A stretch of 64,000 nucleotides of DNA from an uncultured bacterium (GCA_964422745.1 CAYRCK010000001.1:100368-164367); one strand, 5' to 3'. Counted from the first letter of the stretch, positions 3,090 through 39,069 are shown. Program-made: numbers and translations. Notes: a model not told the origin generated them from the letters alone.

Positions 3090-3152
3090 GTCGTCGAAAG
3101 CCGTGCGCTCGGGAAAATCTCGCAGCCTGATACGGGCGCGCTTGCCCCGGAC

Positions 3153-4022: not shown

Positions 4023-4075
4023 TTCCGCAGCCTTCCGGCTTCATGTGCCGACGGCGCCATGCCGGCCGCCGGGGA

Positions 4076-7486: not shown

Positions 7487-7488
7487 AT

Positions 7489-17985: not shown

Positions 17986-20900
17986 TCACCTGACAAGAAC
18001 GAGTTTCCTCGTTCTCACAGCAGAACCGGCCCGCATCACGCAGAAGTAGATGCCCGGCGAGACCCGCCACCCGGCCCCGTTTCTTCCGTCCCACCAAACA
18101 CCGTGCGGTCCTTCGCAGAGCGGTTCGTCGATCAACACCTTAACGAGACGCCCCGCAACATCGTACACGGCAATATTGACCGCCGCGCCTTCCGGCAGCA
18201 CGAAAGACACCTCGGTGCCGGGATTGAACGGATTAGGAAAGTTCTGGTGGAGTGTCAGGGGCGTCACGTCCCCCGCGTCGACCCGCGGTCCGAACGCCGC
18301 CAATCCATCCGCCTCGTTCCCCTCGAGCGCCACGAAGACTTCGTCTCCGAACGGAACGGGCAATCCTAACATCACAGGTCCCCTGCCCCAGTCGCCCATT
18401 CGCGTGCTTTCCGCTACAGCCCCCCCATTCTCGAATCTTACCACCGCCATCTCCCCGGCTCCCCCTCCAGCGATAACGGCCCCACCGGCATGCACGACAC
18501 CACCTATTCCCATGCTGGGGATCTCCGCCGAAGTGATCACATCCCCGTCATCGCCGTCGAGCGTCAGAACCGCATCGCCGGCCGGACCTCTGACCGTAAT
18601 GCAAACCGCCCGGCCTCCGGAGTTCGACGCAACGTTTTGCTCACGCTCCGTGCAGCAAGCATTCGCCCTTTCCCCGGCACCTGCGTCGAGACCTGGCGCC
18701 GGATACGTGAAGGCGCACATAGCCCCTCTGGGCTCCCCAGTTGTATCCGTGCTCCAGAGCTCATCCCCCCCCCGCGCGTCGAAGGCCCTCACGGTGCCGT
18801 TAGTGAGCGCCACCACGACCTTGCCGGCATCGAAGAGCACCGGCGCCCCCGGTATTCCGCTTATATTCCTTCTCCATACGCTATCGCCGGTCCTGGCATC
18901 ATGTGCGGCAAGCAGGCCGCCCCAGTCAGCCTTGAACACCATGCCGCACCCGGCGGCCGGGGCGTCCGCCGCACCGTAGCTCCCGTGATCCCCGCCGACC
19001 GCCCAGAGCAGCTTCCCGGTGAACGGATCCAGGGCGCACAGGCGATCCTCCCCGCCTGCCGAGAACTCCTGTATCTGCAGGAAGATGCTCCCCATGTATA
19101 CAGTGGGATTTCCCAGGCGGTACTCTCCGGCCCCGAAGCTGACCTCCGGAGAGAAGGTCCAGACCGTGCGTCCGTTCCCTCCGTTCAGTGCATGGCACCA
19201 TTCCCCTCCCCCGGCGTAGAAGATCCCACGGTACCAAGCGGCGGACATGGGGCCCTTCTCCGCACTCCCCGGCAGGGCGGTCACCCATTCGATGCCGCCC
19301 TCGTTTGCATCCATCGCATATACAACCCTCACGCCGTTTTCGACCCTCAACGTAAACACCGTTCCCTCCCGCACTATCGGTTGGCAGCGATGACTGCCCG
19401 CTCCATCGAAAACAGATACCCATTTCAATCCCAGCGCAGCCGGGCACGATGTGTCGTACTCCCCGGAGTGCCCGGCATTTCCCTGGAGCATGTCCGGCGC
19501 CTCAAGGCATCCATCCTCCCCCTCGTACGACACCCAGATCGATATCGTCTCCTCCAGGCTGTCACCCCTGCTGCTGAGCCATAGGGGCACGCGCACCTCA
19601 CCGCCTCCGTCCGCCCCGCCATTTACATCCAGCATATATTCAGCCCACACCGAGGCCCCCTCCTCCATATCCCCTATATGATCTACCCTTTCCCCCTCGA
19701 CCACCCCCACACCCGGGGGCACGTCCAGCCTCGCCGATACACCCTCGCAGAACACCCCACCGTTAACAACCTCCACGCGCAACCTTATCCGTTCGCCGTG
19801 ATCCATCCCTCCATCACCGTCCCCCTCGATCTCATCGGCAATGATCCTCCTCGCAAACAGGTCCACCCTCCTGTTCAGCATCAACGAAAAGCGGCAACTC
19901 GATTCAGGGCCGGTGCAGAAGACGCTCAATTCGAATTCGGCGGTCCGCTCATCATCAAACCAACCGGCGCATTCGATCTCGAACTGCATCTCGGCACACT
20001 CGCCCGCAGCAAGATGCCCGAGCGTTGCCGGTCCACCGTCCATTATCCGGACCGCTTCTTCCGCGCAGGAGAGCGTTGCATATCCTCCCGGGAACGGCCT
20101 CCAGGCATTTTCCATCTTGACCGATATGGATGCACGCTCCCCCGCATCCACCGCTCCGTCTCCGTCCCCTCCCCCGTCACACACGGAAACAGATGTAACT
20201 TCGAAAAGATATTCCGGCCGAATTGAAACCGCACGGTCCAGCCTCACCATGCCAGCCCTGAACGTTCCCGCTTCCGGATCCGGCGCGCCACCCGCCTCAT
20301 CACAGGTATAGATAACCTGTGCCTCGATCCTGCTCGGGCCCCAGGATGGATTGACGCTCTTGACAAGCGCCGCCGCCGCCGTCACGAACGGTGCTGCCAT
20401 CGATGTTCCGCTCTTGTACGCGTAATCGCCGGGTACCGCCGATAGTATCGAAACACCCGGAGCGCTGCATGCTATCCAGCCGCCAAAACCGCTGAACGCG
20501 GCCAGCCCGTCTCCCCGATCCGCCGCCGCCACCGCCAGCACCTGATCGTACGCCGCCGGGTAACGCGGTTCGCAGCCGCCCCCGTTTCCAGCCGAAGCCA
20601 CGAGGACCACTCCCGCATCCCGCGCCTCCTCCATCGCCCGCTGCATCAAAAACGAGCCCTCTCCGGCGAAGCTCATATTGATCACATCCGCCCCCATATC
20701 GATCGCGTAATATACAGCCTCGACGGCATCCCCCTCCCTCACCGCGCCCACGGCCCCATCTATGGCATAACCGGCCCTTAGTATCATAAGCCTGCATTCC
20801 GGCGCCGCCCCTTCCACACCAATCCCGTTGCCCGACTCGGCCGCCACTATCCCGGCAACGTGTGTGCCGTGCCCGAGAAAATCGTCGGGCCTGCAGTCCT

Positions 20901-21873
20901 GCGGCGCCGGGTCCTCGCCATCAGCCACATCCGACGGACCGGCAGTAACGAAGTCCCACCCGTGGACATCGTCCGTGTAACCGTTCCCGTCGTCATCTAT
21001 ACCGGCCTCACCAGCCGACTCCGCGGTGTTCGTCCACAACCTGTCGCGGATATCCGGATGATCCAGGTCGCACCCCGTGTCGATTATCGCAATCAAAACA
21101 TCCGAGCGCCCCCTGGTCACGCACCATGCCCCCTCCGCACCAACACGAATGTGCCCCCACTGGCTCGACCAGTAGGGATCATGCACTGTGTCGGTCACCG
21201 GCGGTTCTACGGGCTCACCCCACGAGCTCCCCTCACACGGCGTTTCGCCGCCCCTGCTCGCCCTCAACGGATCGATCCGAAGCAGGACCTCATCGTACAC
21301 CTCTCCTGAAAATGACAAACCGTATATCGCCCCGGCCATTTCCCCGGGATCCAGGCGGCGAACATCCCGCGGCCTTTGAACCTCTATTCTCATGAACTGC
21401 GGATAAGAACTCCCCCCCGTGTTCCCCCTTACATCGGGCCGCCCATAACAGGGATTCTCCTCGACCGATCCCGCTCCCCTGATAGTGTGCACCGTAACAG
21501 CCCAATATCCACCGAATGATTTCGATAACGCCTCTTCGAATCCTCTCGAAATTTCCATAACCAATCGTCCTACGCCGCATGCATCGGCTGTGTTATCTGA
21601 TTCGGTGACCGTATCTCCATCAAGCTGCTCCACGCGCTCCAGGTCGTTCGCATCCATCCTAAAAAGATACGTGTCCCTTGCTTCTCGATTCTCGCTTTCG
21701 CCCCCGGCAGGGTTCCTTCCGTTACGGTTTTCTCCCGGACCGCGCTCCGGTGCAGCGGCAAACGCAGAGCTCCTCATCCAAACTCCGGACATAACAATTA
21801 CTGCTGCGAGCGCAGATAAGAGGGCCATCACCGCACAAATAATCATCGATCGATGTTTCAGATCGCTCCTCAT
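17986..21873 (-). CDS. secreted subtilisin-like (S8) serine peptidase with PQQ-type beta-propeller repeats and a T9SS/Por C-terminal sorting domain
   Basis: 1295 aa. N-terminal signal/TM, S8 catalytic triad context (AIIDTGCDLDHPD; HGTHVAGIVAA; GTSMAAPFVTAAAAL), PQQ-like repeats (GKLLWAVGGDHGSYG...TGDSVWRR), and a C-terminal ~80 aa with QNFPNPFNPGTEVSF...YDVAGRLVKVL...GIYFCVMRAG...RKLVLVR matching the Por_Secre_tail/FlgD-Ig-like CTD. Confidence 0.85.
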   Translation of the reverse strand: MRSDLKHRSMIICAVMALLSALAAVIVMSGVWMRSSAFAAAPERGPGENRNGRNPAGGESENREARDTYLFRMDANDLERVEQLDGDTVTESDNTADACGVGRLVMEISRGFEEALSKSFGGYWAVTVHTIRGAGSVEENPCYGRPDVRGNTGGSSYPQFMRIEVQRPRDVRRLDPGEMAGAIYGLSFSGEVYDEVLLRIDPLRASRGGETPCEGSSWGEPVEPPVTDTVHDPYWSSQWGHIRVGAEGAWCVTRGRSDVLIAIIDTGCDLDHPDIRDRLWTNTAESAGEAGIDDDGNGYTDDVHGWDFVTAGPSDVADGEDPAPQDCRPDDFLGHGTHVAGIVAAESGNGIGVEGAAPECRLMILRAGYAIDGAVGAVREGDAVEAVYYAIDMGADVINMSFAGEGSFLMQRAMEEARDAGVVLVASAGNGGGCEPRYPAAYDQVLAVAAADRGDGLAAFSGFGGWIACSAPGVSILSAVPGDYAYKSGTSMAAPFVTAAAALVKSVNPSWGPSRIEAQVIYTCDEAGGAPDPEAGTFRAGMVRLDRAVSIRPEYLFEVTSVSVCDGGGDGDGAVDAGERASISVKMENAWRPFPGGYATLSCAEEAVRIMDGGPATLGHLAAGECAEMQFEIECAGWFDDERTAEFELSVFCTGPESSCRFSLMLNRRVDLFARRIIADEIEGDGDGGMDHGERIRLRVEVVNGGVFCEGVSARLDVPPGVGVVEGERVDHIGDMEEGASVWAEYMLDVNGGADGGGEVRVPLWLSSRGDSLEETISIWVSYEGEDGCLEAPDMLQGNAGHSGEYDTSCPAALGLKWVSVFDGAGSHRCQPIVREGTVFTLRVENGVRVVYAMDANEGGIEWVTALPGSAEKGPMSAAWYRGIFYAGGGEWCHALNGGNGRTVWTFSPEVSFGAGEYRLGNPTVYMGSIFLQIQEFSAGGEDRLCALDPFTGKLLWAVGGDHGSYGAADAPAAGCGMVFKADWGGLLAAHDARTGDSVWRRNISGIPGAPVLFDAGKVVVALTNGTVRAFDARGGDELWSTDTTGEPRGAMCAFTYPAPGLDAGAGERANACCTEREQNVASNSGGRAVCITVRGPAGDAVLTLDGDDGDVITSAEIPSMGIGGVVHAGGAVIAGGGAGEMAVVRFENGGAVAESTRMGDWGRGPVMLGLPVPFGDEVFVALEGNEADGLAAFGPRVDAGDVTPLTLHQNFPNPFNPGTEVSFVLPEGAAVNIAVYDVAGRLVKVLIDEPLCEGPHGVWWDGRNGAGWRVSPGIYFCVMRAGSAVRTRKLVLVR

Positions 21874-22160: not shown

Positions 22161-23906
22161 TTGAAGAACAGGGAAATAGCCAATCTCTTCGAGGAGATAG
22201 CCGATATACTCGAGCTTCGCGGTGAGAACCGCTTCCGCATCAACGCTTACAGAAGGTCGGCTCAGGCCGTCTCAGGTATAAGCCGTGATATAGAGGAGAT
22301 GGCCGCCGAAGGATCTATAGAATCGATCCCCGGAATCGGAAAGGATCTCAGGGAGAAGATAGAGGAGTACCTGCGGAGCGGTGAGATCTCCCTTCTCGAG
22401 AGGCTTAAGAACGAAACACCCCCTATTCTTCTCGATATGCTCAGGATACCCGGTATCGGCCCCAAGACGGCCTTGCTCATACATGCTGAGCTCGGTGTCG
22501 GCTCACTGGAAGATCTTAAGCGTATGGCTCTCGAACACCGTCTTCAGGAACTTCCTAAGATAAAGGAAAAGACGGAAAAGAACATCATACGGGGAATCGA
22601 ATTTCTCGAGAGCTTCAAGGGAAGGACTCCAATAGGCATCGCTCTGCCGCTTGCCGAAGATATCATAGAGTCTCTAGAGGGCTGCGAAGAGGTCTCGAGG
22701 TTGGAATACGCGGGAAGCCTTCGCAGGCACTGCGAGACTGTAGGTGATATCGATATACTTGCTGCATCCAGCTCCCCCGAGGATACAATAAAATATTTCG
22801 CAGGTCTTTCTCTCGTTGAAAGTGTGATCGTATCGGGCCCGACAAAGTGCAGCGTGTTTACGTCCGACGGTATCCAGGTCGACCTGCGCGTTGTTGAAGA
22901 GAAGAGCTACGGAGCTGCCCTCAACTACTTCACAGGATCGAAGGCCCACAACATCCGTCTGAGGGAGATCGCCATAGAGAGGAATCTCAAGCTCAACGAA
23001 TACGGAGTCTTCGAGAAGAAGGACGGCGGGAGCGGAAAGAGGATCGCCGGCGCCACGGAAGATGAAGTCTATTCGGCGCTCGGTCTGCCTTACATACCTC
23101 CGGAGATACGCGAGGACACGGGAGAGATAGAGGCGGCCCTTAAGGGCGGACTCCCGGAGCTCGTTTCCCGTTCCGATATCAGAGGCGACCTGCACACCCA
23201 CTCCGATTGGAGCGATGGCAACGCGAGCCTCGATGATCTTGCTTCCGCCGGAAAGCGTGCAGGATTGAAGTATATCTTGGTCTCAGACCATTCGATGAGC
23301 CTGCGAATCGCCCATGGCCTGACCGCCAAGAGGCTCATCTCGCAGATAGCTGAAATAGACAGGATAAACGAGAAAATACGTGGATTCCGCCTACTAAAGG
23401 GTAGCGAGGTCGATATTCTCCCAGACGGCTCCCTGGATCTCGAAGACGGCGTGCTGAAGAAGCTGGACGTCGTTATAGCCGCGGTCCATTCAAGCTTCAA
23501 GATGAAACGCGACCGTATGACGGAAAGAATCATCAGCGCCATGAAAAACCCGTTCGTTTCCGTACTCGCACACCCTACGGGCAGGCTTCTGGGAACGCGC
23601 GAGCCTTACGATGTGGACATGGATGCCGTCATCGCCGCCGCCGCTGAAACCGAAACAGCGCTCGAGATCAACTCTCATCCCCTTCGCCTTGACCTTGATC
23701 CTGTCCATGCCCGAAAGGCAGCTGCGGCCGGGGTTCTTCTCTCGCTCGGTACAGACTCCCACGATCCCTCCCTTGAGCTTGATCATCTGCGCTACGGCAT
23801 CGGGACGGCACGCAGGGGCTGGCTTTGCAAGGAACACATCCTAAACTCCAGAACCGCCGCAGCCCTCAAGAAGCTTATAGAGAGAAAAAGGAAGAGAAAC
23901 CCCTAA
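22161..23906 (+). CDS. polX: family X DNA polymerase with PHP phosphoesterase domain (PolX)
   Basis: 581 aa with a TTG start preceded by GAGGGTGG. The N-terminal HhH/Pol-beta-like region runs from NREIANLFEEIADILELRGENRFRINAYRRSAQAV to GDIDIL. The C-terminal PHP domain has HTHSDWSDG and an LVSDHS motif. Confidence 0.9.
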   Translation: MKNREIANLFEEIADILELRGENRFRINAYRRSAQAVSGISRDIEEMAAEGSIESIPGIGKDLREKIEEYLRSGEISLLERLKNETPPILLDMLRIPGIGPKTALLIHAELGVGSLEDLKRMALEHRLQELPKIKEKTEKNIIRGIEFLESFKGRTPIGIALPLAEDIIESLEGCEEVSRLEYAGSLRRHCETVGDIDILAASSSPEDTIKYFAGLSLVESVIVSGPTKCSVFTSDGIQVDLRVVEEKSYGAALNYFTGSKAHNIRLREIAIERNLKLNEYGVFEKKDGGSGKRIAGATEDEVYSALGLPYIPPEIREDTGEIEAALKGGLPELVSRSDIRGDLHTHSDWSDGNASLDDLASAGKRAGLKYILVSDHSMSLRIAHGLTAKRLISQIAEIDRINEKIRGFRLLKGSEVDILPDGSLDLEDGVLKKLDVVIAAVHSSFKMKRDRMTERIISAMKNPFVSVLAHPTGRLLGTREPYDVDMDAVIAAAAETETALEINSHPLRLDLDPVHARKAAAAGVLLSLGTDSHDPSLELDHLRYGIGTARRGWLCKEHILNSRTAAALKKLIERKRKRNP

Positions 23907-23918
23907 AACCAAACCGTA

Positions 23919-23945
23919 TGCCATAATGGCAATGCCAATATGGCA
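23919..23945. promoter_or_regulatory. two tandem palindromes of the form TGCCA-N3-TGGCA, a candidate upstream activator site
   Basis: aTGCCAtaaTGGCAaTGCCAataTGGCAg, about 150 bp upstream of the sigma54-like promoter at 24085. A third half-site TGCCATAAT lies at ~23993. Confidence 0.35.
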
Positions 23946-24084
23946 GCCCATTTGCCTATTCTCGTGCCTGCATGACATAGATCTGCCATAATCTCGAGGC
24001 CTTGATAGTGAAAGAGGAGTTCAGGTCTGTGCATATATTCTCTTATTGTTTGTAATACAATAAGTTATGGCTCTAATTCATTTT

Positions 24085-24100
24085 TGGCATGCATTGTGCG
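24085..24100 (+). promoter_or_regulatory. candidate sigma54 (-24/-12) promoter for hsp20
   Basis: TGGCATgcattGTGC against the consensus TGGCACG-N4-TTGC. The GG-N10-GC spacing is correct. It lies 53 nt upstream of the hsp20 ATG. Confidence 0.4.
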
Positions 24101-24152
24101 AATATGAACTGTGAAAGGTCAAGGAAATGGAATCAAAACGGAGGTGACCAAG

Positions 24153-24596
24153 ATGAAACTAGTAAGATGGAATCCGGACAGGGTGATGGCGAATCCGATG
24201 GATCTTTTCGACCGCTTCTTCGACAACATGCTGTTCCCCAGGACGATCGATGGCGAGGGCAAGATGAATTGGGTTCCCCGTGTGGAAATAACGGAGGAAG
24301 ATGAAAAATTCGAGATCACAGCCGAACTGCCCGGAATGGGCAAGGACAATATCAACATCCTGATCGACAACGGGACATTGACTATCCGCGGCGAGAAGAA
24401 ATTGGAAGACGAGAAGAAGGAGAAGAACTACCATCTTCTGGAGAGGCGATACGGAGAGTTCGTGCGCAGGTTCAAGCTGCCCGAGAACGTAGACGCCGAC
24501 AAGATCAACGCAGAATACAAAGACGGCATTCTCAAGCTGACGGTTCCCAAGACCGAAGCCGCCAAGCCCAAGGAGATAAAGGTCAAGGTGGATTGA
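24153..24596 (+). CDS. Hsp20/alpha-crystallin family small heat shock protein
   Basis: The alpha-crystallin domain runs from WVPRVEITEEDEKFEITAELPGMGKDNINILIDNGTLTIRGEK to YGEFVRRFKLPENVDADKINAEYKDGILKLTVPK. I chose the ATG at 24153 (RBS GGAGGTGA, 7 nt upstream) over the track's 24111. Confidence 0.9.
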   Translation: MKLVRWNPDRVMANPMDLFDRFFDNMLFPRTIDGEGKMNWVPRVEITEEDEKFEITAELPGMGKDNINILIDNGTLTIRGEKKLEDEKKEKNYHLLERRYGEFVRRFKLPENVDADKINAEYKDGILKLTVPKTEAAKPKEIKVKVD

Positions 24597-24618
24597 TCAG
24601 CAGCCGCAGCCGACAGGC

Positions 24619-24660
24619 AAAGAGGGCGGGAGCGTGAGGATCGGCGCTTCCGCCCTCTTT
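24619..24660. terminator. bidirectional hairpin between convergent hsp20 and bactofilin genes
   Basis: AAAGAGGGCGG-N20-CCGCCCTCTTT, an 11-bp perfect stem, followed by a T-rich stretch on the plus strand. Confidence 0.55.
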
Positions 24661-24689
24661 ATCTTTCATGTCTCTATATTATGGATCTA

Positions 24690-25115
24690 TCATACCTTCG
24701 CGGTCTCTCGCACCTTCTCCGCCTGCACGCCCTGGCTGACCGGCTGCTCAATTCTGTTGTTCGGACTCATCTTGCATGATCCCTCGAAGAAAACTCCCTC
24801 GTCGATCACAAGCCTAGTGGTCTTTATATCCCCCTCTACCCTGGATCCGGCCTGCAGCTCAACCTTGTCCTTTGCGTCTATATTACCCACAACCGTTCCG
24901 CCTATGACGGCGCTTTTCACCTTGATGTCGGCCTTGACCTTTCCTCCCTTGCCGACCACAAGCGTGCCCGGGCATGTGACATTCCCGTCGAACTCTCCAT
25001 CGATCCGGAGTGTCCCCTCCTGCACATCTATGTTCCCGTCGATCTTGCACCCTTTGCCGATTATTGAGTTCATCTTTCCCTCCCCGGTGATACCTTCGTT
25101 CTCCTTGTTGAACAT
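24690..25115 (-). CDS. bactofilin (DUF583 polymer-forming cytoskeletal protein)
   Basis: Beta-helical bactofilin repeats run from SIIGKGCKIDGNIDVQEGTLRIDGEFDGNVTCPGTLVVGKGGKVKADIKVKSAVIGGTVVGNIDAKDKVELQAGSRVEGDIKTTRLVIDEG onward. I chose the ATG at 25115 (RBS AAGGAGGGG) over the track's upstream start. Confidence 0.85.
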   Translation of the reverse strand: MFNKENEGITGEGKMNSIIGKGCKIDGNIDVQEGTLRIDGEFDGNVTCPGTLVVGKGGKVKADIKVKSAVIGGTVVGNIDAKDKVELQAGSRVEGDIKTTRLVIDEGVFFEGSCKMSPNNRIEQPVSQGVQAEKVRETAKV

Positions 25116-25164
25116 GAACCCCTCCTTTTCCTTCGTTCTCTTACCTCTTTTCAACCCGGGCACC

Positions 25165-25935
25165 TCACTTTAAAAGGTATTTCAAAGGGTCTACTGCGAT
25201 GTTATTCCTCGATACCTCGAAATGCAAGTGCGGCGCGGTGCTTCTTCCCGTATTCCCAGAAAAGGCGATAGTCTGGCCGCGCCCGACTCTTTCTCCTTTC
25301 ATTACTACCAGCCTTTCGTTGTGTCCGTAAAGGGTTTTTATTCCATATCCGTGATCCAGCACCACGTAGTAACCGTATGTATCATCCCAGCCCGCGTCCG
25401 AAACCTCGCCATTCGCCGAGGCTTTTACCGGTGTTCCTCTTTCAACAGCTATATCGATCCCTCTGTGATACTGACGGCTGCCCTCTCCTCCCTTAACGCT
25501 GTATCCCTTTGTGATATAACCCTTAACAGGCCAGAATGTCGGTGTCGCCATGAGCACCTGCTCCCTCTCCTCATCGAACCCCCTATCATCGCTCAGCGCT
25601 ACACCGGCTGAAGCTACCGTGTCTCCATCCTTCGTATCCATCCCGAGCATACCCCTGATCCGCCCGTCCATTTCATGCAGCCTCGCGAGGTTTCTCGTCA
25701 ACTCCCCAATACGCTCGTTTCTCCTCGAGAGCTCGTCGACCTGTCTTTCCAGCATAACCGTTTCCCTCGTCTTGATCAGCAGCCTTCCGTAAGTGGCTAC
25801 GAAGACGATCAGCACGACGGCCGTTATCCCCAAAAGCGTCACCAGAACGTAGAACAGCCTGTAGGGCACCCTGTACGTCCTGGTTTTCTTAAGGTCGTGC
25901 GGTACGACTATTACGGAAAATGTTCCCCTCTTCAT
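25165..25935 (-). CDS. M23 family metallopeptidase, predicted active, with N-terminal TM anchor
   Basis: TM segment (YVLVTLLGITAVVLIVFVATY), a coiled coil, then a LytM domain with intact Zn ligands: HRGIDIA (HxxxD) and PHLHFEV (HxH). Confidence 0.85.
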   Translation of the reverse strand: MKRGTFSVIVVPHDLKKTRTYRVPYRLFYVLVTLLGITAVVLIVFVATYGRLLIKTRETVMLERQVDELSRRNERIGELTRNLARLHEMDGRIRGMLGMDTKDGDTVASAGVALSDDRGFDEEREQVLMATPTFWPVKGYITKGYSVKGGEGSRQYHRGIDIAVERGTPVKASANGEVSDAGWDDTYGYYVVLDHGYGIKTLYGHNERLVVMKGERVGRGQTIAFSGNTGRSTAPHLHFEVSRNNIAVDPLKYLLK

Positions 25936-25942
25936 ATCTGAA

Positions 25943-26800
25943 TCAGAAAGTGGTGTCCACTCCCATCTTGTCGAGTATGGTCTCTAGCTCCTCCTCCGAG
26001 TAGTACTCTATAGAGAGCACCCCTCCCCTTTTTCTCTGCGAAATACTCGCCCTTGTCCCCAGGTATCTCTCCAGCCTGTCCTCTATGGCCTCCAGCCTCG
26101 GGTCCCTTCTCGTCTTCCCTCTCTGCCTCTTCGTCCCCCTGCTTCCCGGCGTAACGTTCTCGACATCCCTGACCGAAAGGCCGTCCCGTGCCGCTTTCAA
26201 AGCCCATTCTATCTGCGACCTCTCCCCCTCTATGGCCAGAATCGCCCTCGCGTGCCCCTCCTTGAGCTTACCCTGTTCGATAAGCGATATGACCTTATCC
26301 GGCAGCTTTAGAAGCCTCATGGTGTTATTTATAGCGCTTCTGCTCTTTCCTATGATCCCGGAGAGCTCCTGTACCGACAGACCGAACTCGGCGCAGATAT
26401 TACTGTACCCTCTGGCCTCCTCGATCGGATTAAGATCCTCCCTGAGAAGGTTCTCGATCAGTGCATATCTGAGCGAGTCACAGTCGCCCACCTCCCTGAC
26501 TATCGCAGGAATCGTTCTTTTCCCGGCAATCTTCGAGGCCCTCAGACGTCTCTCCCCAACGATCAGCTCATACCTGTCCCCGTCCCTTCTTACAACCACG
26601 GGCTGTATCAATCCGTGCCTTTTAATCGACGTTGCCAGCTCTTCGAGCTGTTGCTCATCGAACCTATCTCTCGGCTGATTCCTGTTCGGATCTATCCTGT
26701 CTATCTCTAGCTCCTTGACCCTTTCGGTTTCCGCAACGCTCTCCCTGAGATCCGTCGATAGCAGCGCATCGAGCCCTCTTCCCAGCGCCTTTTTTCTCAT
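25943..26800 (-). CDS. parB: chromosome partitioning protein ParB
   Basis: N-terminal ParB box (KALGRGLDALL; GERRLRAS arginine patch) and an HTH. Confidence 0.9.
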   Translation of the reverse strand: MRKKALGRGLDALLSTDLRESVAETERVKELEIDRIDPNRNQPRDRFDEQQLEELATSIKRHGLIQPVVVRRDGDRYELIVGERRLRASKIAGKRTIPAIVREVGDCDSLRYALIENLLREDLNPIEEARGYSNICAEFGLSVQELSGIIGKSRSAINNTMRLLKLPDKVISLIEQGKLKEGHARAILAIEGERSQIEWALKAARDGLSVRDVENVTPGSRGTKRQRGKTRRDPRLEAIEDRLERYLGTRASISQRKRGGVLSIEYYSEEELETILDKMGVDTTF

Positions 26801-26801
26801 A

Positions 26802-27614
26802 TCAACCGGTCCTTACCGTCTTTCTGGTCCCACGATCCGAGCCGGCCTGGTGCTCCTTTTTCTGCTTCTCTATAAACTCTTTAGCCAGATTTAGGTAGCT
26901 CCTCGATCCGGCGCTCTGAACATCGTAGAGAAGCACAGGACGGCCGTAGCTCGGGCATTCGCTTAGCCTCACGTTCCTGGGGATTATCGTATCGTAAACC
27001 TTCTCGCCGAAGTACGATATAGCCTCATCGGCGACCTGGCTGGATAGATTCAGCCTCCTGTCGAACATCGTCATCAGGACTCCCTCGATCCTCAGGTCCG
27101 GATTGAGGTGACGCTGCACCATCCTTATAGTATTCAAAAGCTGACTCAGCCCCTCGAGAGCGTAGTACTCGCACTGAATCGGTATCAAAACAGAATTCGC
27201 CGCGGTTAATGTGTTCAGTGTCAACAGGCCCAAGCTGGGAGGGCAGTCTATTATCACGTAGTCGTAGCTGTCATCGATCCCGCGAAGAGCTTCCTTCAGC
27301 TTCCTCTCCCTTGCTATCTGCGAAACGAATTCTATCTCGGCTCCGATCAGCCTCGGGTGCGATGGCACTATATCCACCAGATTCGTTTTCCTAATGGCGT
27401 CGCTCAGCGACACTTCTCCTATAAGCACCTCGTATATAGTGCTTTCGCCGTCCTTCGCCCTAACCCCAAGACCGCTGCTGGCGTTCGCCTGAGGATCTAT
27501 ATCGACGAGCAGCACCCTAACCTCGGCGGCCCCGAGGCTCGCGCTCAGGTTGACGGCTGTGGTCGTCTTGCCCACACCCCCCTTTTGATTGGCTATAGCA
27601 ACTATCTTTGCCAC
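26802..27614 (-). CDS. parA: chromosome partitioning ATPase ParA/Soj
   Basis: Deviant Walker A ([17 protein letters not shown]), Walker A' and Walker B (VDIDPQ) motifs. Confidence 0.9.
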
Positions 27615-27626
27615 ATTGGCACCCCT

Positions 27627-28862
27627 TTACTCTACGGCTCCTCGCATAACAGGAGAACTCGAAAGATAGTTATCGAATTTCACCGTTCCCATTAATATCG
27701 GATTGTCGTTGTGGTCGTAAATCAATTCGGCGATCTCCTCCTCATCGGTGGTTCCCCAGTAGTTATATTCCGCATCGATAACTGTTTCGATCTTGTAGTA
27801 GAGAAGCCTTATCGCATAGCCGGCCGGCGGCATTCCGTTCATGTATATTGCGCACTGACGTATAACCGGCTCTGCGGCGCTGATCACCCGTATGCCATCA
27901 TACTCGTTACCCGATATAGAACATTCAGTTATCTCGACATTATGCTCTTCAACGGCCCCGCTGTCCTGATCCACCGCTATCCCCGCATATAAGTTATTCC
28001 TCAATATGCAGGCTGTCACCGATACATTGGAGTTCGAAACATTGATCCCCGTACCGTTATCGTGTATATCACAATCCGTAATCTCGGCTTTTGATGTGTA
28101 ATTGGCATTTATGCCGTATTTCGTGTTGTCGAAGATATTGCTGTTAGATATGAACAACTCGGCGTCGTCCAGCGATATGCCTTCCTTTGCGGAGTACAAG
28201 TTCATGTGCGTGATCTCAGCGACCGAACTGTTCCCCAAAGATATCCCGTTCCATCTTCCCTCAGCCGAGCACTCACTGGGCCCGATCGTCACCTTGGCAC
28301 CTGATTCTCCCTCTATTATAAGCGCCCCTCCCTCTACATCCAGACCGCTGCTCGAGCCCGAAACGTAAATCTTGATACCCGCCCCTATCCTCAATTCGCT
28401 GTGGATTGGCACTTCGGCCATTCCCCCCTTTATAACATAAGTTACCGTCGGATCATCTAGTGTCAAGGTCTCGTATTCAGCTATATCTGGAAACAGCGAC
28501 ATCACCTGGACATAGATATATGACGACTTCCTGTCTATGCCGTCTGTCACCGTCAACTTGACCTTGTAGTATCCAGCTTCAGCGGGGGCCGTCCATAGCA
28601 CAGACTGTCCCTTGCCGTCAGCCGGATCCAGCGTCCCACCCGATACCGCCCATTCGTATGAGATCTGATCCCCGTCAGGATCCTCTGCTTCCCCGCTCAG
28701 CGATACCCAATCACCGCCGCAGATATCGCAGATATCCCCGTTGATCACTATCGAACCCGGCGGCGTGTTGACGAAAGACAACTCATCATCACAACCGGAC
28801 ATGATCGCCACCGCGGTTGATAAAATCGCTATTTTCATGCAATAAAACAGCTTGCACTGCAT
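27627..28862 (-). CDS. lipoprotein with PKD-like domain and right-handed parallel beta-helix repeats
   Basis: I chose the ATG at 28862 (RBS AGGAGG), giving the lipoprotein signal MQCKLFYCMKIAILSTAVAIMSGCDD. A PKD-like segment (ISYEWAVSGG...GYYKVKLTVTDG) is followed by repeated NxxxG/IxxN beta-helix turns (NSNIFDNTKYGINANYTSKAEITDCDIHDNGTGINVSNSNV...). The stop is 12 nt before the parA start. Confidence 0.6.
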   Translation of the reverse strand: MQCKLFYCMKIAILSTAVAIMSGCDDELSFVNTPPGSIVINGDICDICGGDWVSLSGEAEDPDGDQISYEWAVSGGTLDPADGKGQSVLWTAPAEAGYYKVKLTVTDGIDRKSSYIYVQVMSLFPDIAEYETLTLDDPTVTYVIKGGMAEVPIHSELRIGAGIKIYVSGSSSGLDVEGGALIIEGESGAKVTIGPSECSAEGRWNGISLGNSSVAEITHMNLYSAKEGISLDDAELFISNSNIFDNTKYGINANYTSKAEITDCDIHDNGTGINVSNSNVSVTACILRNNLYAGIAVDQDSGAVEEHNVEITECSISGNEYDGIRVISAAEPVIRQCAIYMNGMPPAGYAIRLLYYKIETVIDAEYNYWGTTDEEEIAELIYDHNDNPILMGTVKFDNYLSSSPVMRGAVE

Positions 28863-29051
28863 GGCCGCCTCCTGGATCAATGCGGGGCCATGGGAAGTAT
28901 AGTGACGGTCCGAAAAGAAATCAACGAAAATAATGCCGCATAAGGAGAGGTGTTGATAACGGCTTCTATGCCAAGCCATTACTGAAAAAACTGAAAAGGC
29001 GGCGGCCGCAAGCCCGTTCAAAGCTGTTGGCGCCCGAGGCGCCTATCCGAG

Positions 29052-29067
29052 TGTTTCACGTGAAACA
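29052..29067. promoter_or_regulatory. parS site, perfect consensus
   Basis: TGTTTCACGTGAAACA is identical to the canonical 16-bp ParB-binding palindrome. Confidence 0.85.
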
Positions 29068-29085
29068 TGCCATTCAGGCTGGCGA

Positions 29086-29101
29086 TGTTTCACGTGAAAC
29101 C
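29086..29101. promoter_or_regulatory. parS site, 15/16 match
   Basis: TGTTTCACGTGAAACc, 34 bp from the first site, in the rsmG-lipoprotein spacer. Confidence 0.75.
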
Positions 29102-29152
29102 TGCCATCGTGCCTTCACGTCCCTATATCTCTCTTTCTAATTTTCTATACTC

Positions 29153-29905
29153 TCAGCGATTCTCGTTTTCCTGCTGCCCTCCTCCCTTCTTGTCCCCTCT
29201 TCCCCCAATAATCTTTCTATATACAAGTGCGGTCCCCCTTCCCCCCGGCAGCTCCCTCTTTCCCTCCAGCCTCATCGCCTCCCCCTCCTCTTCTGTCTCC
29301 TCCTCGAACCCCTTACCCTTTACCGTAACGTATATTCCGTTTACCTCGAGCAATCCCTCGGCGATCGGAAGCATCTCCTCCAGCTTCCCCGCTGCCTTCG
29401 ACGATACTATCTCGTATCTTCTCCCCCTGTAGTCGGCTGCATCTTTCATGACCGCCTCGACAAACCTCATGCCCGTAAGCCTTATGACCCTGCAGAGAAA
29501 CAGATAAGGCCTCTCCCTTCGCTCGAAGAGTGTGAGCCCCATCCCGGGCCTCGCGATCTTCCAGATCATTCCCGGGAAACCGGATCCGGACCCGATGTCC
29601 GCCGCCCATACCATCCCCATCTCCTCTTCCCTCCGGCGTCCCTCTGCCCCGGCGCTCCCTCCGCATCGCTCCTCTGTCCTCAGCGCCCTCTCCGCTTCAA
29701 CCAGAAGCAGGGCGGAATCCAGAACGAGCCTGCATACATTCCCCTCTATGTCCCCCCTCCCGACAAGGTGCATCCTGCTGCTCCACCCTGCCACCTCGTC
29801 GATGTACATGCCGAGAAGCTCACCTCTGTCATCCGAAAACAGGCTGCTCAGACCTGCATCGCGCAACTCCCCGAGAATCCTATCCATCAGTTTGCCCGCC
29901 TCCAT
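29153..29905 (-). CDS. rsmG: 16S rRNA (guanine527-N7)-methyltransferase
   Basis: SAM-binding motif DIGSGSGFPGMIWKIARP, in the conserved position after mnmG. It has a ~50-aa Gly/Glu-rich C-terminal extension. Confidence 0.8.
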   Translation of the reverse strand: MEAGKLMDRILGELRDAGLSSLFSDDRGELLGMYIDEVAGWSSRMHLVGRGDIEGNVCRLVLDSALLLVEAERALRTEERCGGSAGAEGRRREEEMGMVWAADIGSGSGFPGMIWKIARPGMGLTLFERRERPYLFLCRVIRLTGMRFVEAVMKDAADYRGRRYEIVSSKAAGKLEEMLPIAEGLLEVNGIYVTVKGKGFEEETEEEGEAMRLEGKRELPGGRGTALVYRKIIGGRGDKKGGGQQENENR

Positions 29906-29924
29906 TGCCCTCCTCCACAGATCA

Positions 29925-31808
29925 TCAAGCTCTCGCCTTCTTTCCCGAAGATCTCCTGGCGCGCTCGAGCATAACCATGAGTATCGACAGGTCGGAGTTG
30001 CGTACGCCCGATATCCTCGATGCCTGGCCCATCGTGCCGGGCCTGAATAGCTCGAGCTTTTCCCTCGCCTCCCTGCTTAGCGACTCTATATCGAACGAGA
30101 AGTCCTCCGGTATGCGTTCCTTTTCCATCCTGCCGAGTCTTTCGGCGATTCTCCTCTGCCTTTGTATATATCCCTCGTACTTCACCCTGATCTCCAGCGC
30201 CTCTTTCTCCACCTCGCTGAGCTGGAGCCCTCCTCCGGGAAGCGAGGATTCAACCTCCGCTATCCCGATCCCCGGCCTGTGCAGGAGCTGGGCCGCATTC
30301 TGAGGCTCCTTCACCCCACCCACCCCCGCCCCACCCAGCAGGAGATTGCATCGATCTCTGCCGATCGTTTCACGCCGTAGCCTCCTCTGCGCTCTTGCCA
30401 CCCTTCTTCTTCTATCAACGACCTTCTCCCATAATCCCCTATCTATGAGCCCGAACCTCGCTCCGTATTTCATGAGCCTCTCGTCCGCGTTGTCCTGTCT
30501 TAGAAGTAGTCTGTGCTCCGCACGCGACGTGAACATCCTGTACGGTTCGTCGATCTCCTTTGTGACGAGGTCGTCTATGAGTACACCTATATACGCCTGA
30601 TGCCTGCCGAGAACCAGCTGGCGCATTCCCCGCAGCCCAAGAGAGGCGTTCATGCCCGCCATAAGCCCTTGAGCCGCCGCCTCCTCGTATCCAGATGTAC
30701 CGTTGACCTGCCCCGCAAAGTACAGCCCGGAAATAATTCTCGACTCCAGAGTGGGAAATATCTGGTATGGCGGGAAAAAGTCATATTCAATGGCATATCC
30801 GAACCTCACTATCTCCGCACTCTCCAGACCCCGGACGGTCCTGATCATCTTCGCCTGGACGTCACGAGGCAGGCTCGTGGAAAGGCCGTTCACGTATATC
30901 TCATCCGTATCAGCACCCTCGGGCTCCAGGAATAGCTGGTGCCTCCCCCTGTCGGGGAACCGAACCACCTTGTCCTCTATGGACGGGCAGTACCTCGGTC
31001 CAGTGCCCTTGATCCTTCCGGTGTACAGGGGCGACCTGTCCAGGCCCCGCCTTATCACATCGTGCGTTCTTCCGTTGGTGTACGTTATATAGCACGGAAC
31101 CTGCTCTACATCCAGCCTCCCGGTCCTGAAGGAGAACGGCGCCGGAGAGCTGTCCCCCGGCTGTTCCTCGCAACGATCGAAATCTATGCTCCCCCTTAGA
31201 AGCCTGGCCGGAGTTCCGGTCTTTAGCCTTCTTCTCTCTATCCCCAATCCCGCAATCTGGTCGGATAGCTCGCATGATGGAGGCTCGCCCTCCCTCCCCC
31301 CCGGAAAGCTTTCCTCACCTATATGCATCAATCCGTTGGGGAAGGTGCCCAACGCCAGTATCACCCTCTTCCCGTAAATCGTTTCACCTCCGGCGAGGGT
31401 CACCCCCCGGGCCACCCCTTCCGAGACCTCGACCGCAGTGACCTCTCCTTCCCGGATCTCCAGACCCTCCTGCGCCCTCAGGGCCTCGAGCATCCTCTCA
31501 TGGTAGGCCTTCTTGTCAGCCTGCGCCCTTGGCGACCAGACTGCCGGCCCCTTCGCCCTGTTCAGCATCCTGAACTGTATCCCCGCCTCGTCAATACATA
31601 GCCCCATCTCCCCACCCATTGCATCTATCTCCCTCACCAGCTGCCCCTTCGCCAGGCCTCCGATAGCAGGATTGCACGGCATTCTAGCTATGTCATTCAC
31701 GTTTATGGTAACAAGAAGGGTCGAAAAACCCATCCTGGCCGATACCAGGGCCGCCTCGCATCCTGCATGCCCGCCACCGGTTACAATTATATCATAATTG
31801 CTCATCAT
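29925..31808 (-). CDS. mnmG: tRNA uridine 5-carboxymethylaminomethyl modification enzyme
   Basis: FAD-binding N-terminus ([16 protein letters not shown]) and the [17 protein letters not shown] motif. Confidence 0.95.
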
Positions 31809-35968: not shown

Positions 35969-36015
35969 ACAATCTTTCCCTTCAGTAAGCCCTTTATCTT
36001 CGGAAGCCCCCTGCC

Positions 36016-36240
36016 TCAGCGCACCGGGTCATATCCGCTGCCCGAAAACGGGTGGCATCTGAGTATGCGACGCAGCGCAAGCCAGGATCCCCTATAGGGC
36101 CCGTAGCGTCTAATTGCAATTTCCGCATACTCAGAACAGGAAGGATAATACCTGCATGTCATTGGATGATATGGGGATATTGCTTTTCTATATATCCTAA
36201 GGGCCGCAAGGCCCAATGCTGTCAGTATTCTCGATATCAT
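36016..36240 (-). CDS. yidD: membrane protein insertion efficiency factor YidD
   Basis: 74 aa with the motif [23 protein letters not shown]. Confidence 0.9.
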
Positions 36241-36581
36241 CCGAACTTTGATATTAGTCCAACCTTCACCAAGGAACTCTCAACATCTTCGGTCAATTCT
36301 CGAAGCGTCGTATTCACCGGGCAGAACGCCGCTATAAATACTATCCACAGCCCCTTCGTCTCGAATCGCCCCTCCAGCTTCCTGAAGACCTCCCGCATCA
36401 ACCTCTTGGCACGGTTCCTGAGATAAGCCTTTCCTACCCTTCTGCCGCTCGCCACGAATCCGGGTACTATCCCCTCCTCATCTCTCTCCAGGTAACAAAT
36501 CGAGACCTTTTCGCCGGTTATTCTCCTGCCCCTCTCGTAGACCAAACGGAATTGCCCGTCCTTCTTCAATCCTATAAGCAT
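36237..36581 (-). CDS. rnpA: ribonuclease P protein component
   Basis: 114 aa with the RNR motif ([14 protein letters not shown]). Confidence 0.9.
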
Positions 36582-36605
36582 CTTCCGTAACGGTCTGTTA
36601 CACGC

Positions 36606-36740
36606 CTACACGGCTAGGCGCTTTCTTCCCTTAGCCCTCCTTCTCTTCATGACAAGCCGGCCGTTCTTTGTACTCATTCTCTTTCTGAATCCGTGTTTTC
36701 TCTTCTTCTTCAGGTTGTGAGGTTGATATGTCCTTTTCAC
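36606..36740 (-). CDS. rpmH: 50S ribosomal protein L34
   Basis: Hand translation of the minus strand gives [46 protein letters not shown] (44 aa), with RBS AAGGAG 7 nt upstream. It is absent from the ORF track because it is under 60 aa. Confidence 0.9.
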
Positions 36741-37246
36741 CCTTTATCTCCTTGATACTCTCCCCTGCCAAGGTATTCCCCATCAGTAAGATATAAGTCT
36801 AAACCAATCAACGATAGACAAGCGTTTTCACATTGTCAAGGTTTTTGTGCCTTCTTTTTCTATCCCTTTTGTTGATTTTGCCTTTCAACCCCCTTCGTCC
36901 AGTGCCCCCTCCCCCAAAACCGGCACATCCTCTCAAACCGCCCCCCCTGTTTTTTTATCCTATAGTTATATAACCAATTATGTACTTTTTCCCCCTTTTT
37001 TCAAATTTTGTCTTGATCATTTAAATCCCGTATGCTAGATTCCCGACCGCGTGATGGTGATCATCTTAGTCACACTAGATCAATCATTGATAACTTGTTC
37101 ATATCGTCACCACTTACAACGCGAATTGTGGAAAACGTTCCTAACTAGTTTTTAGTGGCGCCGTTAATGTGCTGCGAGGCCGCCACTTGCGGAGTTGTCC
37201 ACAGGTGTGGATAACTTGATCCTGCCTCCGCCCGCTGCGGAAAGGT
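36741..37246. other. origin region part 1 (rpmH-dnaA spacer): AT-rich tract and cluster of DnaA boxes
   Basis: The AT-rich tract is at ~36960-37050. DnaA boxes are TGTGGAAAA (37127-37135), TTGTCCACA (37195-37203), TGTGGATAA, a perfect match (37206-37214), and TGTGGATGA (37258-37266). Gene-strand polarity switches here. Confidence 0.7.
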
Positions 37247-38656
37247 TTGGTTGTATCTGTGGATGAAAACAAAGATACGCATATCGGCCTCACGGTCGAA
37301 GACAAGGCGGAAGGCGTGAGGCTCGATCATGTTTGGTCCAATATATTGGACAGGATAAGCGGCCTGGTAACGCCGCAGAGCTTTCAAACGTGGTTCAAGC
37401 CCACCCGTCTCGTGTCCTACGAGGACTCGCAGCTCGTCGTGGAGGGCCCAAACCCCTTTTTCATCGACTGGCTGTCAGAGCACCATGTGAAGAAGATCAA
37501 GTCCGCGGCCAGAGACATACTCGGAGAGGACGTCTCCATCGAGTTCATCTCATCCCCCCTGCTTCCACGTGTTTCTGCGCCCGCGGAGAATTCAAAGAGG
37601 TCCATCCTCGTCAAGGAACCCGTCACCCTTCCCAACAGGGTCCAGCTCAACTCGCGATACACCTTCGACGAGTTTGTCGTCGGGGGCGGCAACAGGCTCG
37701 CTACCGCGGCGGCTATGGCTGTCGCGGAAAAGCCCGCCCAGGTCTACAATCCCCTGTTCATATACGGAGGGGTCGGCCTGGGAAAAACCCACCTTCTCCA
37801 GGCGATCGGCCATGCGGTCCTTCGGGCCCATCCATCAATGCACATTTCCTACGTATCCACCGAGAGCTTCATGAACGAGCTCATACAGGCGATACGCACC
37901 GGCATCACCCTCGAATTCAAGGAGCGCTACCGAAACACTGACATTCTGCTGATCGACGATATCCAGTTCCTCGCCGGCAAGGAGAGCACCCAGGAGGAAT
38001 TCTTCTTCACGTTCAACTCTCTTCACGATGCAAACAAACAGATAGTCGTCACCAGCGATTGTCCGCCCAAGCAGATCCCTACGCTTCAGGAACGCCTTAC
38101 ATCCCGCTTCGAATGGGGTTTGATCACGGACATACAGGCACCGGACATCGAGACCCGCATCGCCATCCTCAGAAAGAAAGTGGAGAAGGAGCATATACAG
38201 ATCCCTGATAGCGTGATCCAGGTCATCGCCGAGAACGTCAAGAACAATATACGTGAGCTGGAGGGTTCATTGGTCAGGATCCTCGCATGCTCCAGCCTCA
38301 CGTGTCAGGATATAAACGTAGACATGGCTCTGGACGTTCTCAAGGATCTGATAAAGGAACCCGGCAAGAAGAGTCTCAACGTTCGTTCAATCCAGAAGTC
38401 CGTTTCTCAGCACTTTGATATACCCCTCGACAGCCTCAAGGCTAAAACGCGCATCAAGACCGTCGTTGTCGCCAGGCAGGCGGCTATTTACCTGTGCAGA
38501 GAGCTTACCGACCTTTCATTGGTCCAGATCGGAAAACGTTTCGGCGGAAGGGATCACAGCACCGTTCTTCATGCCATAAAGAAGATAGAATCGTTGCTGG
38601 ACAGCGATCCATCGATAAGACAAAAGATCGACTCCATAAGGGAAAGTGTTTCCTGA
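37247..38656 (+). CDS. dnaA: chromosomal replication initiator protein DnaA (true start probably GTG ~37316)
   Basis: AAA+ Walker A (GGVGLGKTHLLQAIG), Walker B (LLIDDIQFL), sensor motifs, and the C-terminal DNA-binding domain (LSLVQIGKRFGGRDHSTVLHA). The longest ORF includes DnaA boxes, so the start is probably downstream (~446 aa from 37316). Confidence 0.95.
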   Translation: MVVSVDENKDTHIGLTVEDKAEGVRLDHVWSNILDRISGLVTPQSFQTWFKPTRLVSYEDSQLVVEGPNPFFIDWLSEHHVKKIKSAARDILGEDVSIEFISSPLLPRVSAPAENSKRSILVKEPVTLPNRVQLNSRYTFDEFVVGGGNRLATAAAMAVAEKPAQVYNPLFIYGGVGLGKTHLLQAIGHAVLRAHPSMHISYVSTESFMNELIQAIRTGITLEFKERYRNTDILLIDDIQFLAGKESTQEEFFFTFNSLHDANKQIVVTSDCPPKQIPTLQERLTSRFEWGLITDIQAPDIETRIAILRKKVEKEHIQIPDSVIQVIAENVKNNIRELEGSLVRILACSSLTCQDINVDMALDVLKDLIKEPGKKSLNVRSIQKSVSQHFDIPLDSLKAKTRIKTVVVARQAAIYLCRELTDLSLVQIGKRFGGRDHSTVLHAIKKIESLLDSDPSIRQKIDSIRESVS

Positions 38657-39069
38657 AATCCCCCTCTATCCTTTCCCACAACGCCGCCGAGAATAATCCG
38701 CAATCCCTGTGCGCAGCGTCGGTTGTTATCCACAGTATTCACATCGAAGCTCTCAGTTTACTGTTCATACATGTTCTTAACCGCTCTCTTCGTGGAAAAA
38801 TCAAAATGTTCAACATTGCAATCCACATGCCTTCAAATTCGATCATCCACGGCAGATCGAAAGAGATCCTCTATTTCAACAATTCAACACTTCCAACTAC
38901 TACTACTAATAATTCCATACAATATTTGAATTAGTATATTACCCCTTTTAAATCTTTTAACATTCTTATTTTTCTTGTACACTTGACGTGCTTGTTTTAT
39001 CATTTTCGTTCTTTGCGAATATATCAGGATTGTGGCTGAAACAGCGGTCTGAAATCAGGAGGTGGCGGT
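38657..39069. other. origin region part 2 (dnaA-dnaN spacer): DnaA boxes plus strong AT-rich DNA unwinding element
   Basis: Perfect TTATCCACA at 38726-38734, and 2-mismatch boxes CAATCCACA, TCATCCACG and TGTGGCTGA. The AT-rich block at ~38895-39000 (ACTACTACTAATAATTCCATACAATATTTGAATTAGTATATT...) is the lowest-GC stretch of the window. Confidence 0.65.

Follow-up and report, generated by a model that had tools for sequence, protein, structure and literature searches.

A probable parABS operon joined to an LmdC/BacA-like M23 peptidase and bactofilin pair in an uncultured Krumholzibacteriota bacterium and its relatives

Two gene adjacencies, each described previously, are relevant here. One is that of a bactofilin gene with the partition genes, parA and parB. 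Myxococcus xanthus, for example, co-transcribes parA, parB, bacM (a bactofilin gene), and MXAN_7474, the latter encoding a lipoprotein, with both BacM and MXAN_7474 dispensable for segregation (Iniesta 2014, PMC3899335). Loss of BacM also leaves the positioning of ParA and ParB unaffected (Lin 2017, PMC5703909; PMC3899335). In Bdellovibrio bacteriovorus the order is rsmG (bd3908), bd3907 (of unknown function), parA, parB, and bd3904 (a bactofilin gene), with two parS sites upstream (Kaljevic 2023, PMC10547168). There, parA3, parB, and bd3904 are co-transcribed, as seen by reverse transcription PCR (Milner 2020, PMC7186360). The other adjacency is that of a bactofilin gene with an M23 peptidase gene, which has been catalogued in 226 species (Pöhl 2024, PMC10945521). 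Considered here is a locus in which, as read from sequence, these two known adjacencies are merged in one four-gene block, and it is this merging that is new. The locus is found in a stretch of 64 kb (64,000 nucleotides, nt) from an uncultured Krumholzibacteriota bacterium (GCA_964422745.1 CAYRCK010000001.1:100368-164367), which is referred to as the window. On the minus strand of the window, downstream of rsmG and about 8 kb from dnaA, there are two parS sites, a lipoprotein gene, parA, parB, an M23 gene, and a bactofilin gene, in that order. The reading that is preferred, at a probability of roughly 0.68, is that a wall-remodelling module of the LmdC/BacA type has been fused to a parABS operon, with tight junctions enforcing co-expression near the origin.

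The features in question are the following, with coordinates counted from the first letter of the window and protein lengths in amino acids (aa):

24619-24660: hairpin terminator with a 17-bp stem, 10 pairs of which are GC; the bactofilin gene is on one side of it and a convergent hsp20 gene on the other
24690-25115, minus strand: bactofilin gene; 141 aa; PF04519 at 4.6e-30, full profile 1-98
25165-25935, minus strand: gene for an M23 metallo-endopeptidase, LmdC-like and predicted to be bitopic; 256 aa; Pfam Peptidase_M23 at 5.5e-34
25943-26800, minus strand: parB; 285 aa; CTPase N-domain with GERRLRA, helix-turn-helix, and C-terminal dimerisation domain
26802-27614, minus strand: parA; Soj-type ATPase; 270 aa; GTG start
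27627-28862, minus strand: lipoprotein gene; 411 aa; signal peptide, lipobox IMSG-C, PKD domain, and right-handed beta-helix (NosD/CASH-like)
28896-28924, minus strand: weak sigma-70-like promoter match, TTGATT-17-TATACT (9/12 matches), between parS and the lipoprotein start
29052-29067: parS site 1, TGTTTCACGTGAAACA, perfect, i.e., with no mismatch to the consensus
29086-29101: parS site 2, TGTTTCACGTGAAACC, differing at 1 position from the consensus palindrome, and located between rsmG and the lipoprotein gene

An earlier, sequence-only reading of this DNA had placed the five genes and both parS sites at positions where Pfam and a motif scan find them as well. It also had given the gaps between these genes (lipoprotein, parA, parB, M23, bactofilin) as 12, 2, 8, and about 50 nt, of which the first holds while the sequence gives 1, 7, and 49 nt for the others. 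Independent gene calls, on identical contigs of three public assemblies, return the same starts and lengths. As the sequence and these independent calls agree, that observation of the locus is confirmed, with only two start codons and the gaps needing correction. The hairpin at 24619-24660 is the sole strong terminator-like structure in 24400-30000, and a terminator scan found no minus-strand terminator-like sites inside the cluster. This compact, co-oriented, terminator-free layout is consistent with a single transcription unit. The promoter match at 28896-28924 is a candidate only, given that sites of this kind are no more numerous here than shuffling would lead one to expect, and the sigma-70 model may not represent the promoter type of this phylum.

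How, then, does this locus compare with those already described? The par operon of M. xanthus is alike in being origin-proximal and in co-transcribing parAB with bactofilin and lipoprotein genes, the bactofilin there acting in cell shape. It differs in that its parB and bactofilin genes are not reported to have an M23 gene between them, and in that the lipoprotein gene is found downstream rather than, as here, upstream. Bdellovibrio shares the frame of rsmG, a gene without assigned function, parA, parB, and a bactofilin gene, along with two upstream parS sites, but it too has no M23 gene described between parB and the bactofilin gene. Given these parAB-bactofilin operons (PMC3899335, PMC7186360, PMC10547168), as well as M23-bactofilin adjacency in 226 species (PMC10945521), the description of the arrangement by the sequence-only reading as unusual was overstated.

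As to the M23 and bactofilin genes themselves, the pair resembles LmdC-BacA of Hyphomonas neptunium and Rhodospirillum rubrum (PMC10945521), that is, in the tight spacing of the two genes and in an M23 protein that is bitopic, with cytoplasmic beta-hairpin, transmembrane helix, coiled coil, and active M23 domain, all of which here are predicted. The M23 protein of the window nevertheless is shorter (256 aa), has one continuous helix versus three coiled-coil segments, and belongs to a pair that is embedded in a parABS operon. The Csd1/Csd2-CcmA system of Helicobacter pylori is similar in that Csd1, which is the nearest solved relative of the M23 domain, is bactofilin-associated and encoded beside CcmA. 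It is different in that here there is no adjoining, Csd2-like inactive paralogue, and in that the H. pylori genes are unlinked to parAB.

A further comparison is with the BacNOP bactofilins of M. xanthus, the one proven bactofilin scaffold of ParABS, which requires the ParB-like adaptor PadC and the long BacP tail (Lin 2017, PMC5703909). The relevance of these proteins is in showing polymerised bactofilin to be capable of positioning ParA and ParB-parS. They differ, however, in that bacNOP-padC lies outside of the par operon, and neither a PadC-type adaptor nor an extended bactofilin tail is seen here. That is, a tblastn search of the 64-kb window with ParB finds parB alone, with no PadC-like second ParB-fold protein.

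Literature searches found no paper on the parA-parB-M23-bactofilin block or its conservation, and nothing relevant on bactofilins in Gemmatimonadota. Nor are there gemmatimonad names in the 226-species list (Pöhl 2024, PMC10945521). The parB-M23-bactofilin portion of the block may be present also in Halanaerobiales. Halothermothrix orenii presumably has its M23-bactofilin pair about 11 kb from the record end, a location usual for soj-spo0J in Firmicutes, and so possibly near those genes. The pair itself is listed at 2,565,508-2,566,934, minus strand (Pöhl 2024, first source data file for Figure 7).

The case for the fusion as an old one is based upon relatives of this locus. These were obtained by scanning one genome per GTDB species with an M23 alignment as query, giving 589 relatives of which the best 80 were kept, and neighbours in these 80 loci were found by tblastn with the window's proteins. 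Being top matches to the query, the 80 loci do not amount to a random sample, and among their taxon labels, as deposited, are Krumholzibacteriota, Latescibacterota, UBP1, Gemmatimonadota (Gemmatimonadales and Longimicrobiales), Eisenbacteria, FCPU426, and Raymondbacteria. Among these best 80 of 589, there are 78 loci that are informative as to parB, and in 76 of them parB is directly upstream of the M23 gene and has the same orientation. The remaining two of the 80 (L019 and L028) are truncated. The two exceptions, L040 (from an unlabelled bacterium) and L056 (from an Eisenbacteria metagenome-assembled genome, MAG), possess the M23 and bactofilin genes (7001-8300) with no parAB within 7 kb upstream. 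A bactofilin gene is found directly downstream of the M23 gene in all 80 loci, with one copy frameshifted (L069). In that locus, from a Gemmatimonadetes MAG, the bactofilin (about 5160-5400) begins MAMFTEKGQ and loses frame after about 70 codons, as could be due to assembly error or instead to its being a pseudogene.

Median gaps across these loci are -4 nt for parA-parB, 6.5 nt for parB-M23, where many overlaps of -4 or -1 are seen, and 47 nt for M23-bactofilin. Where 5 kb or more of upstream sequence is available, as it is for 60 loci, parA along with parB is found in 58, versus mnmG in 39 and rsmG in 22, this last count perhaps being too low as low identity hampers detection. By these counts, parAB-M23-bactofilin is the most stable part of the neighbourhood. 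Absence of the linkage from close relatives had been named beforehand as the outcome that would speak against the sequence-only reading, and what is found instead is that parB-M23-bactofilin is kept, across about six phylum-level labels. Clustering of open reading frames from the 80 loci identified no fifth conserved gene 3' of the bactofilin gene, with only lineage-specific neighbours there. The conserved core thus consists of four genes, i.e., parA-parB-M23-bactofilin.

Where the linkage to parAB ends is seen with farther relatives. With the FCPU426 orthologue as query, the neighbourhoods of eight such relatives (37-43% identity) were read, these being from Firestonebacteria, Elusimicrobia, Spirochaetia, and unlabelled bins. 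Not one of the eight has parAB beside the M23 gene, which rules out a parAB linkage that is universal to LmdC-like genes. In six of the eight a bactofilin gene is found immediately 3' of the M23 gene (five by Pfam and one by size and position). In a Firestonebacteria MAG (L085, 630-6386), the M23 and bactofilin genes come straight after atpH-atpA-atpG-atpD-atpC, on the same strand, the pair in this case being fused to another operon. As the M23-bactofilin pair is found alone or in other operons outside of the clade, it is the autonomous, mobile unit. The fusion with parAB is specific to one clade, and both old and stable within that clade.

The M23 protein has what appears to be an active site. 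Its motifs are intact, i.e., H157xxxD161 (as YHRGID), H205 (YGHN), and H236xH238 (PHLHF), and none of these five residues (H157, D161, H205, H236, and H238) varies among the 80 M23 sequences, namely that of the window plus 79 from the loci. The claim by the sequence-only reading of intact HxxxD/HxH zinc ligands is thereby upheld. Also shared by all 80, and conserved across phyla, is an N-tail motif, [FLV][ST][VI][IV][IV]VP[HD][DG]...[TS]Rx[YF]R[VI][PS]. An AlphaFold2 model, built from 65 homologues (mean predicted local distance difference test score, pLDDT, of 75), has an N-terminal beta-hairpin with strands at 5-10 and 19-24. This is followed by a single helix, residues 25-96, in which a hydrophobic span (27-49) continues as a coiled coil, and then by a disordered linker and the M23 domain (133-256). 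As modelled, the protein has the architecture of LmdC, namely a cytoplasmic beta-hairpin and one transmembrane helix, followed by a coiled coil and, last, an M23 domain of the active type. Its best sequence match in the PDB is to H. pylori Csd1 (5j1l_A, E 3.5e-21), and no NCBIfam equivalog cutoff is reached.

The bactofilin starts with the ATG at 25115, as an independent gene call agrees, with AAGGAGG before the start and an N-terminus of MFNKENEG. A membrane-targeting peptide has been experimentally defined for bactofilins, with consensus MFSKKKK and with F2 and K4/K7 critical (PMC12448750). The N-terminus here resembles that consensus at M1, F2, and K4, with E5 and E7 in place of lysines, and MF[GN]K[ED] N-termini are retained in relatives. 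Acidic variants of the targeting peptide occur in Bacteroidota (PMC12448750). The bactofilin domain spans residues 17-115, leaving a short C-terminal tail of about 26 residues, and no NCBIfam family matched this protein.

The partition portion of the block is what would be expected of a ParABS system, with a Walker A ATPase, the ParB domains, and parS near the origin all present. ParA (Pfam AAA_31 at 3.5e-69 and CbiA at 5e-28) carries the deviant Walker A motif KGGVGKTT (pattern KGGxGK[ST]) within residues 9-18, and is 52-82% identical to its counterparts in the related loci. ParB has the Pfam domains ParB_N, HTH_ParB, and ParB_C, and scores 190.8 against TIGR00180, passing the cutoff of 58, with the Noc model of NCBIfam falling below its own cutoff. 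Both proteins look canonical. Apart from the two parS sites, the 64 kb contain no match to the 16-bp palindrome TGTTNCACGTGAAACA, even with up to 3 mismatches allowed, and two or more parS matches were seen in 0 of 100 shuffles. In related loci, parS sites (at most 1 mismatch) are always upstream of parA and never within or 3' of the block. In Krumholzibacteria-like loci they are about 1.4-1.6 kb upstream of parA, that is, upstream of the lipoprotein gene. Arrays of 3-7 parS sites at close spacing occur in some relatives, either upstream of parA or farther upstream, as seen in L061 (1190-1605, with seven perfect copies in about 420 bp), L059 (4617-4875), and L053 (2421-2493).

The lipoprotein gene, by contrast with the four-gene core, is a lineage-specific addition. 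Its start is the ATG at 28862, with GGAGG upstream, rather than the open reading frame limit at 29021. Orthologues are found directly upstream of parA in 24 Krumholzibacteria-like loci only; the gene is absent from L009 and L014, and none was detected in L031-L080. These orthologues are 23-34% identical, versus 60-82% for ParA, indicating fast evolution, though the lipobox cysteine and the short gap to parA are retained. Pfam matches are to Beta_helix (7e-21), NosD (9e-12), and PKD (3.8e-6). A sequence search of the PDB gave no match, and NCBIfam gave only sub-threshold matches to NosD or to beta-helix repeats.

The surroundings of the block are those of a chromosomal origin. By Pfam, dnaA (37247-38656), dnaN, recF, and gyrB are found on the plus strand, with yidC, jag, mnmE, mnmG, and rsmG on the minus strand upstream of the par cluster. 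The cumulative GC-skew minimum is at about 38 kb, and a candidate oriC region (35969-39069) combines this minimum with a GC dip (0.475) around dnaA and the dnaA-dnaN spacer. An Rfam scan of the whole window at gathering thresholds found no RNA families.

On the 3' side, convergent hsp20 and PolX genes are the neighbours in Krumholzibacteria, and a NIF3/DUF34 gene is the neighbour in Gemmatimonadota. In the window the former are at 22161-24596 on the plus strand, convergent to the par operon, i.e., the gene for a 581-aa DNA polymerase of family X that includes a PHP domain, along with the Hsp20 gene. The hsp20 neighbour, and often PolX too, is retained in the nearest Krumholzibacteria loci. The NIF3/DUF34 gene is found 7-340 nt after the bactofilin gene in L032, L033, L045, and 24 other Gemmatimonadota loci. 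One locus labelled 'Patescibacteria group bacterium' (L004, DATKWS010000156.1) has identities to the window of 63% for M23, 82% for ParA, and 63% for PolX. As this locus is Krumholzibacteria-like, its taxon label is probably wrong. Farther from the par cluster, at 17986-21873 on the minus strand, is a gene for a 1295-aa protein combining a subtilase (Peptidase_S8), a PQQ-like beta-propeller, and a C-terminal FlgD_ig-like domain, which is predicted to be a large secreted protease.

The preferred reading, of a parABS operon fused to an LmdC/BacA-type module, may be spelled out as a series of steps. An autonomous module of that type would have become fused to the 3' end of an origin-proximal parABS operon in the ancestor of a large related clade, with Krumholzibacteria gaining the exported lipoprotein gene between parS, along with a presumed promoter, and parA. 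Going by family membership, ParB would load at the two parS sites and ParA would move the resulting ParB-origin complex. The bactofilin would polymerise in a nucleotide-independent manner at the membrane's inner face via its N-terminal MF-x-K peptide, and this polymer would recruit the bitopic M23 protein through the enzyme's conserved cytoplasmic beta-hairpin. The periplasmic M23 domain would then cleave peptidoglycan cross-links locally, and in this manner shape growth. These wall-remodelling steps are drawn by analogy with LmdC-BacA of H. neptunium and R. rubrum and with Csd1-CcmA of H. pylori. The tight and often overlapping parB-M23 junction most likely serves to enforce expression of the wall module together with that of the partition genes beside the origin. 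The sequences give no evidence of contact by the bactofilin or M23 protein with ParA, ParB, or parS.

Certain points weigh against that reading. The likeness of the M23 protein to LmdC of H. neptunium is one of architecture as modelled, and the beta-hairpin is predicted with only moderate confidence (pLDDT 72-80). With acidic residues at bactofilin positions 5 and 7, membrane binding is not assured. The operon, furthermore, is one that has been read from sequence, and internal promoters may exist within parB or the M23 gene. Lastly, a parAB linkage that outlasts its classical neighbours hints at selection beyond that for simple co-expression.

A stronger claim, in keeping with the spatial coupling suggested by the sequence-only reading, is that the coupling is physical, with a bactofilin scaffold at the membrane or near the pole both anchoring ParA and/or ParB-parS and recruiting the M23 protein, such that origin capture and local wall remodelling (as in pole maturation, in budding, or at a growth zone) would in this clade be the work of one machine. 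Retention of the four-gene order across about six phylum-level labels, with parB-M23 gaps that are near zero or overlapping, argues for such coupling, as does a linkage that outlasts that of mnmG/rsmG with parA, this stability of the junction being what keeps the idea alive. So too does the scaffolding of ParABS by BacNOP in M. xanthus (PMC5703909), and the authors who described co-transcription of the Bdellovibrio bactofilin with parAB speculated on a similar role (PMC7186360). The nearest precedent, however, contradicts it, as BacM, the bactofilin of the M. xanthus par operon, is without effect on ParA/ParB localisation or on segregation (PMC5703909, PMC3899335), and it is because loss of BacM spares ParA/ParB positioning that an inference of coupling from gene order is argued against. 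There also is no PadC-like adaptor in the window, the C-terminal tail of the bactofilin is short, unlike that of BacP, and ParA and ParB look canonical. In addition, M23-bactofilin pairs function with no parAB beside them in neighbouring lineages (linked in 0 of 8 loci), in alphaproteobacteria, and in Helicobacter. Physical coupling we accordingly hold to be unlikely, albeit with a chance that is well above negligible.

The linkage might instead be neutral, inherited synteny: the pair landed beside parB once in a common ancestor and was never separated, with co-expression being without selective value. The origin-proximal order rnpA-yidC-jag-mnmE-mnmG-rsmG-parAB is famously stable among genes that are functionally unrelated, and insertion of the lipoprotein gene implies that the operon tolerates passengers. 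Yet, across the same divergence, mnmG and rsmG have been lost or moved much more often than M23-bactofilin (39 and 22 versus 58 of the 60 loci), and the recurrent stop/start overlaps of -4 or -1 nt at parB-M23 suggest that translational coupling has been maintained. Neutrality is for these reasons quite improbable. Scarcely credible is that the M23 protein is a divisome LytM factor, i.e., an amidase activator of the EnvC/NlpD/DipM kind, and not an endopeptidase guided by a bactofilin. Both EnvC and DipM are among the PDB and NCBIfam matches to the M23 domain, but no NCBIfam equivalog cutoff supports their assignment to it. Activators have degenerate sites, whereas here the zinc ligands and catalytic histidines are intact in 80 of 80, and the protein has an N-terminal transmembrane helix and cytoplasmic hairpin, with no signal peptide or lipobox. 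The window, moreover, encodes a separate candidate for that role, on the minus strand at 1860-4993, where ftsE (4076-4993) and ftsX (3153-4022) are joined by the gene for a 409-aa, coiled-coil M23 protein (1860-3089). The site of the latter is degenerate, with NTGID for HxxxD and VLH for HxH, and the protein would appear to be an EnvC/PcsB-like divisome activator. It is the intact site of the par-linked protein in combination with this separate, degenerate, ftsEX-linked gene that excludes the activator reading.

What the locus may mean can be considered at two levels. Should it involve co-expression only, as under the preferred reading, then it still would serve to annotate LmdC/BacA-type morphogenetic modules in candidate phyla for which cell shape is unknown. 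The block is intact across several, mostly uncultured phyla, and is more stable there than the classical linkage of mnmG/rsmG with parAB. A bolder proposal, and one that is more doubtful than physical coupling in general, is that throughout the Gemmatimonadota/Krumholzibacteriota/Latescibacterota/Eisenbacteria/FCPU426/Raymondbacteria clade the pair would be a dedicated part of the partition system, with a membrane-bound bactofilin patch that captures ParB-parS or sequesters ParA while also directing the endopeptidase. Origin docking and remodelling of the pole or bud site would then be one event. By analogy, such a patch may act as do PopZ/TipN, HubP, or DivIVA elsewhere. This raises a testable question, which is whether lineages without PopZ-, HubP-, or DivIVA-type anchors use a bactofilin patch instead, with wall hydrolysis tied to that patch. 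Cultured Gemmatimonas species represent a practical system for such testing. Budding growth has been reported for Gemmatimonas, and if origin docking and wall remodelling are indeed joined in this manner, then that joining could bear on how these bacteria bud.

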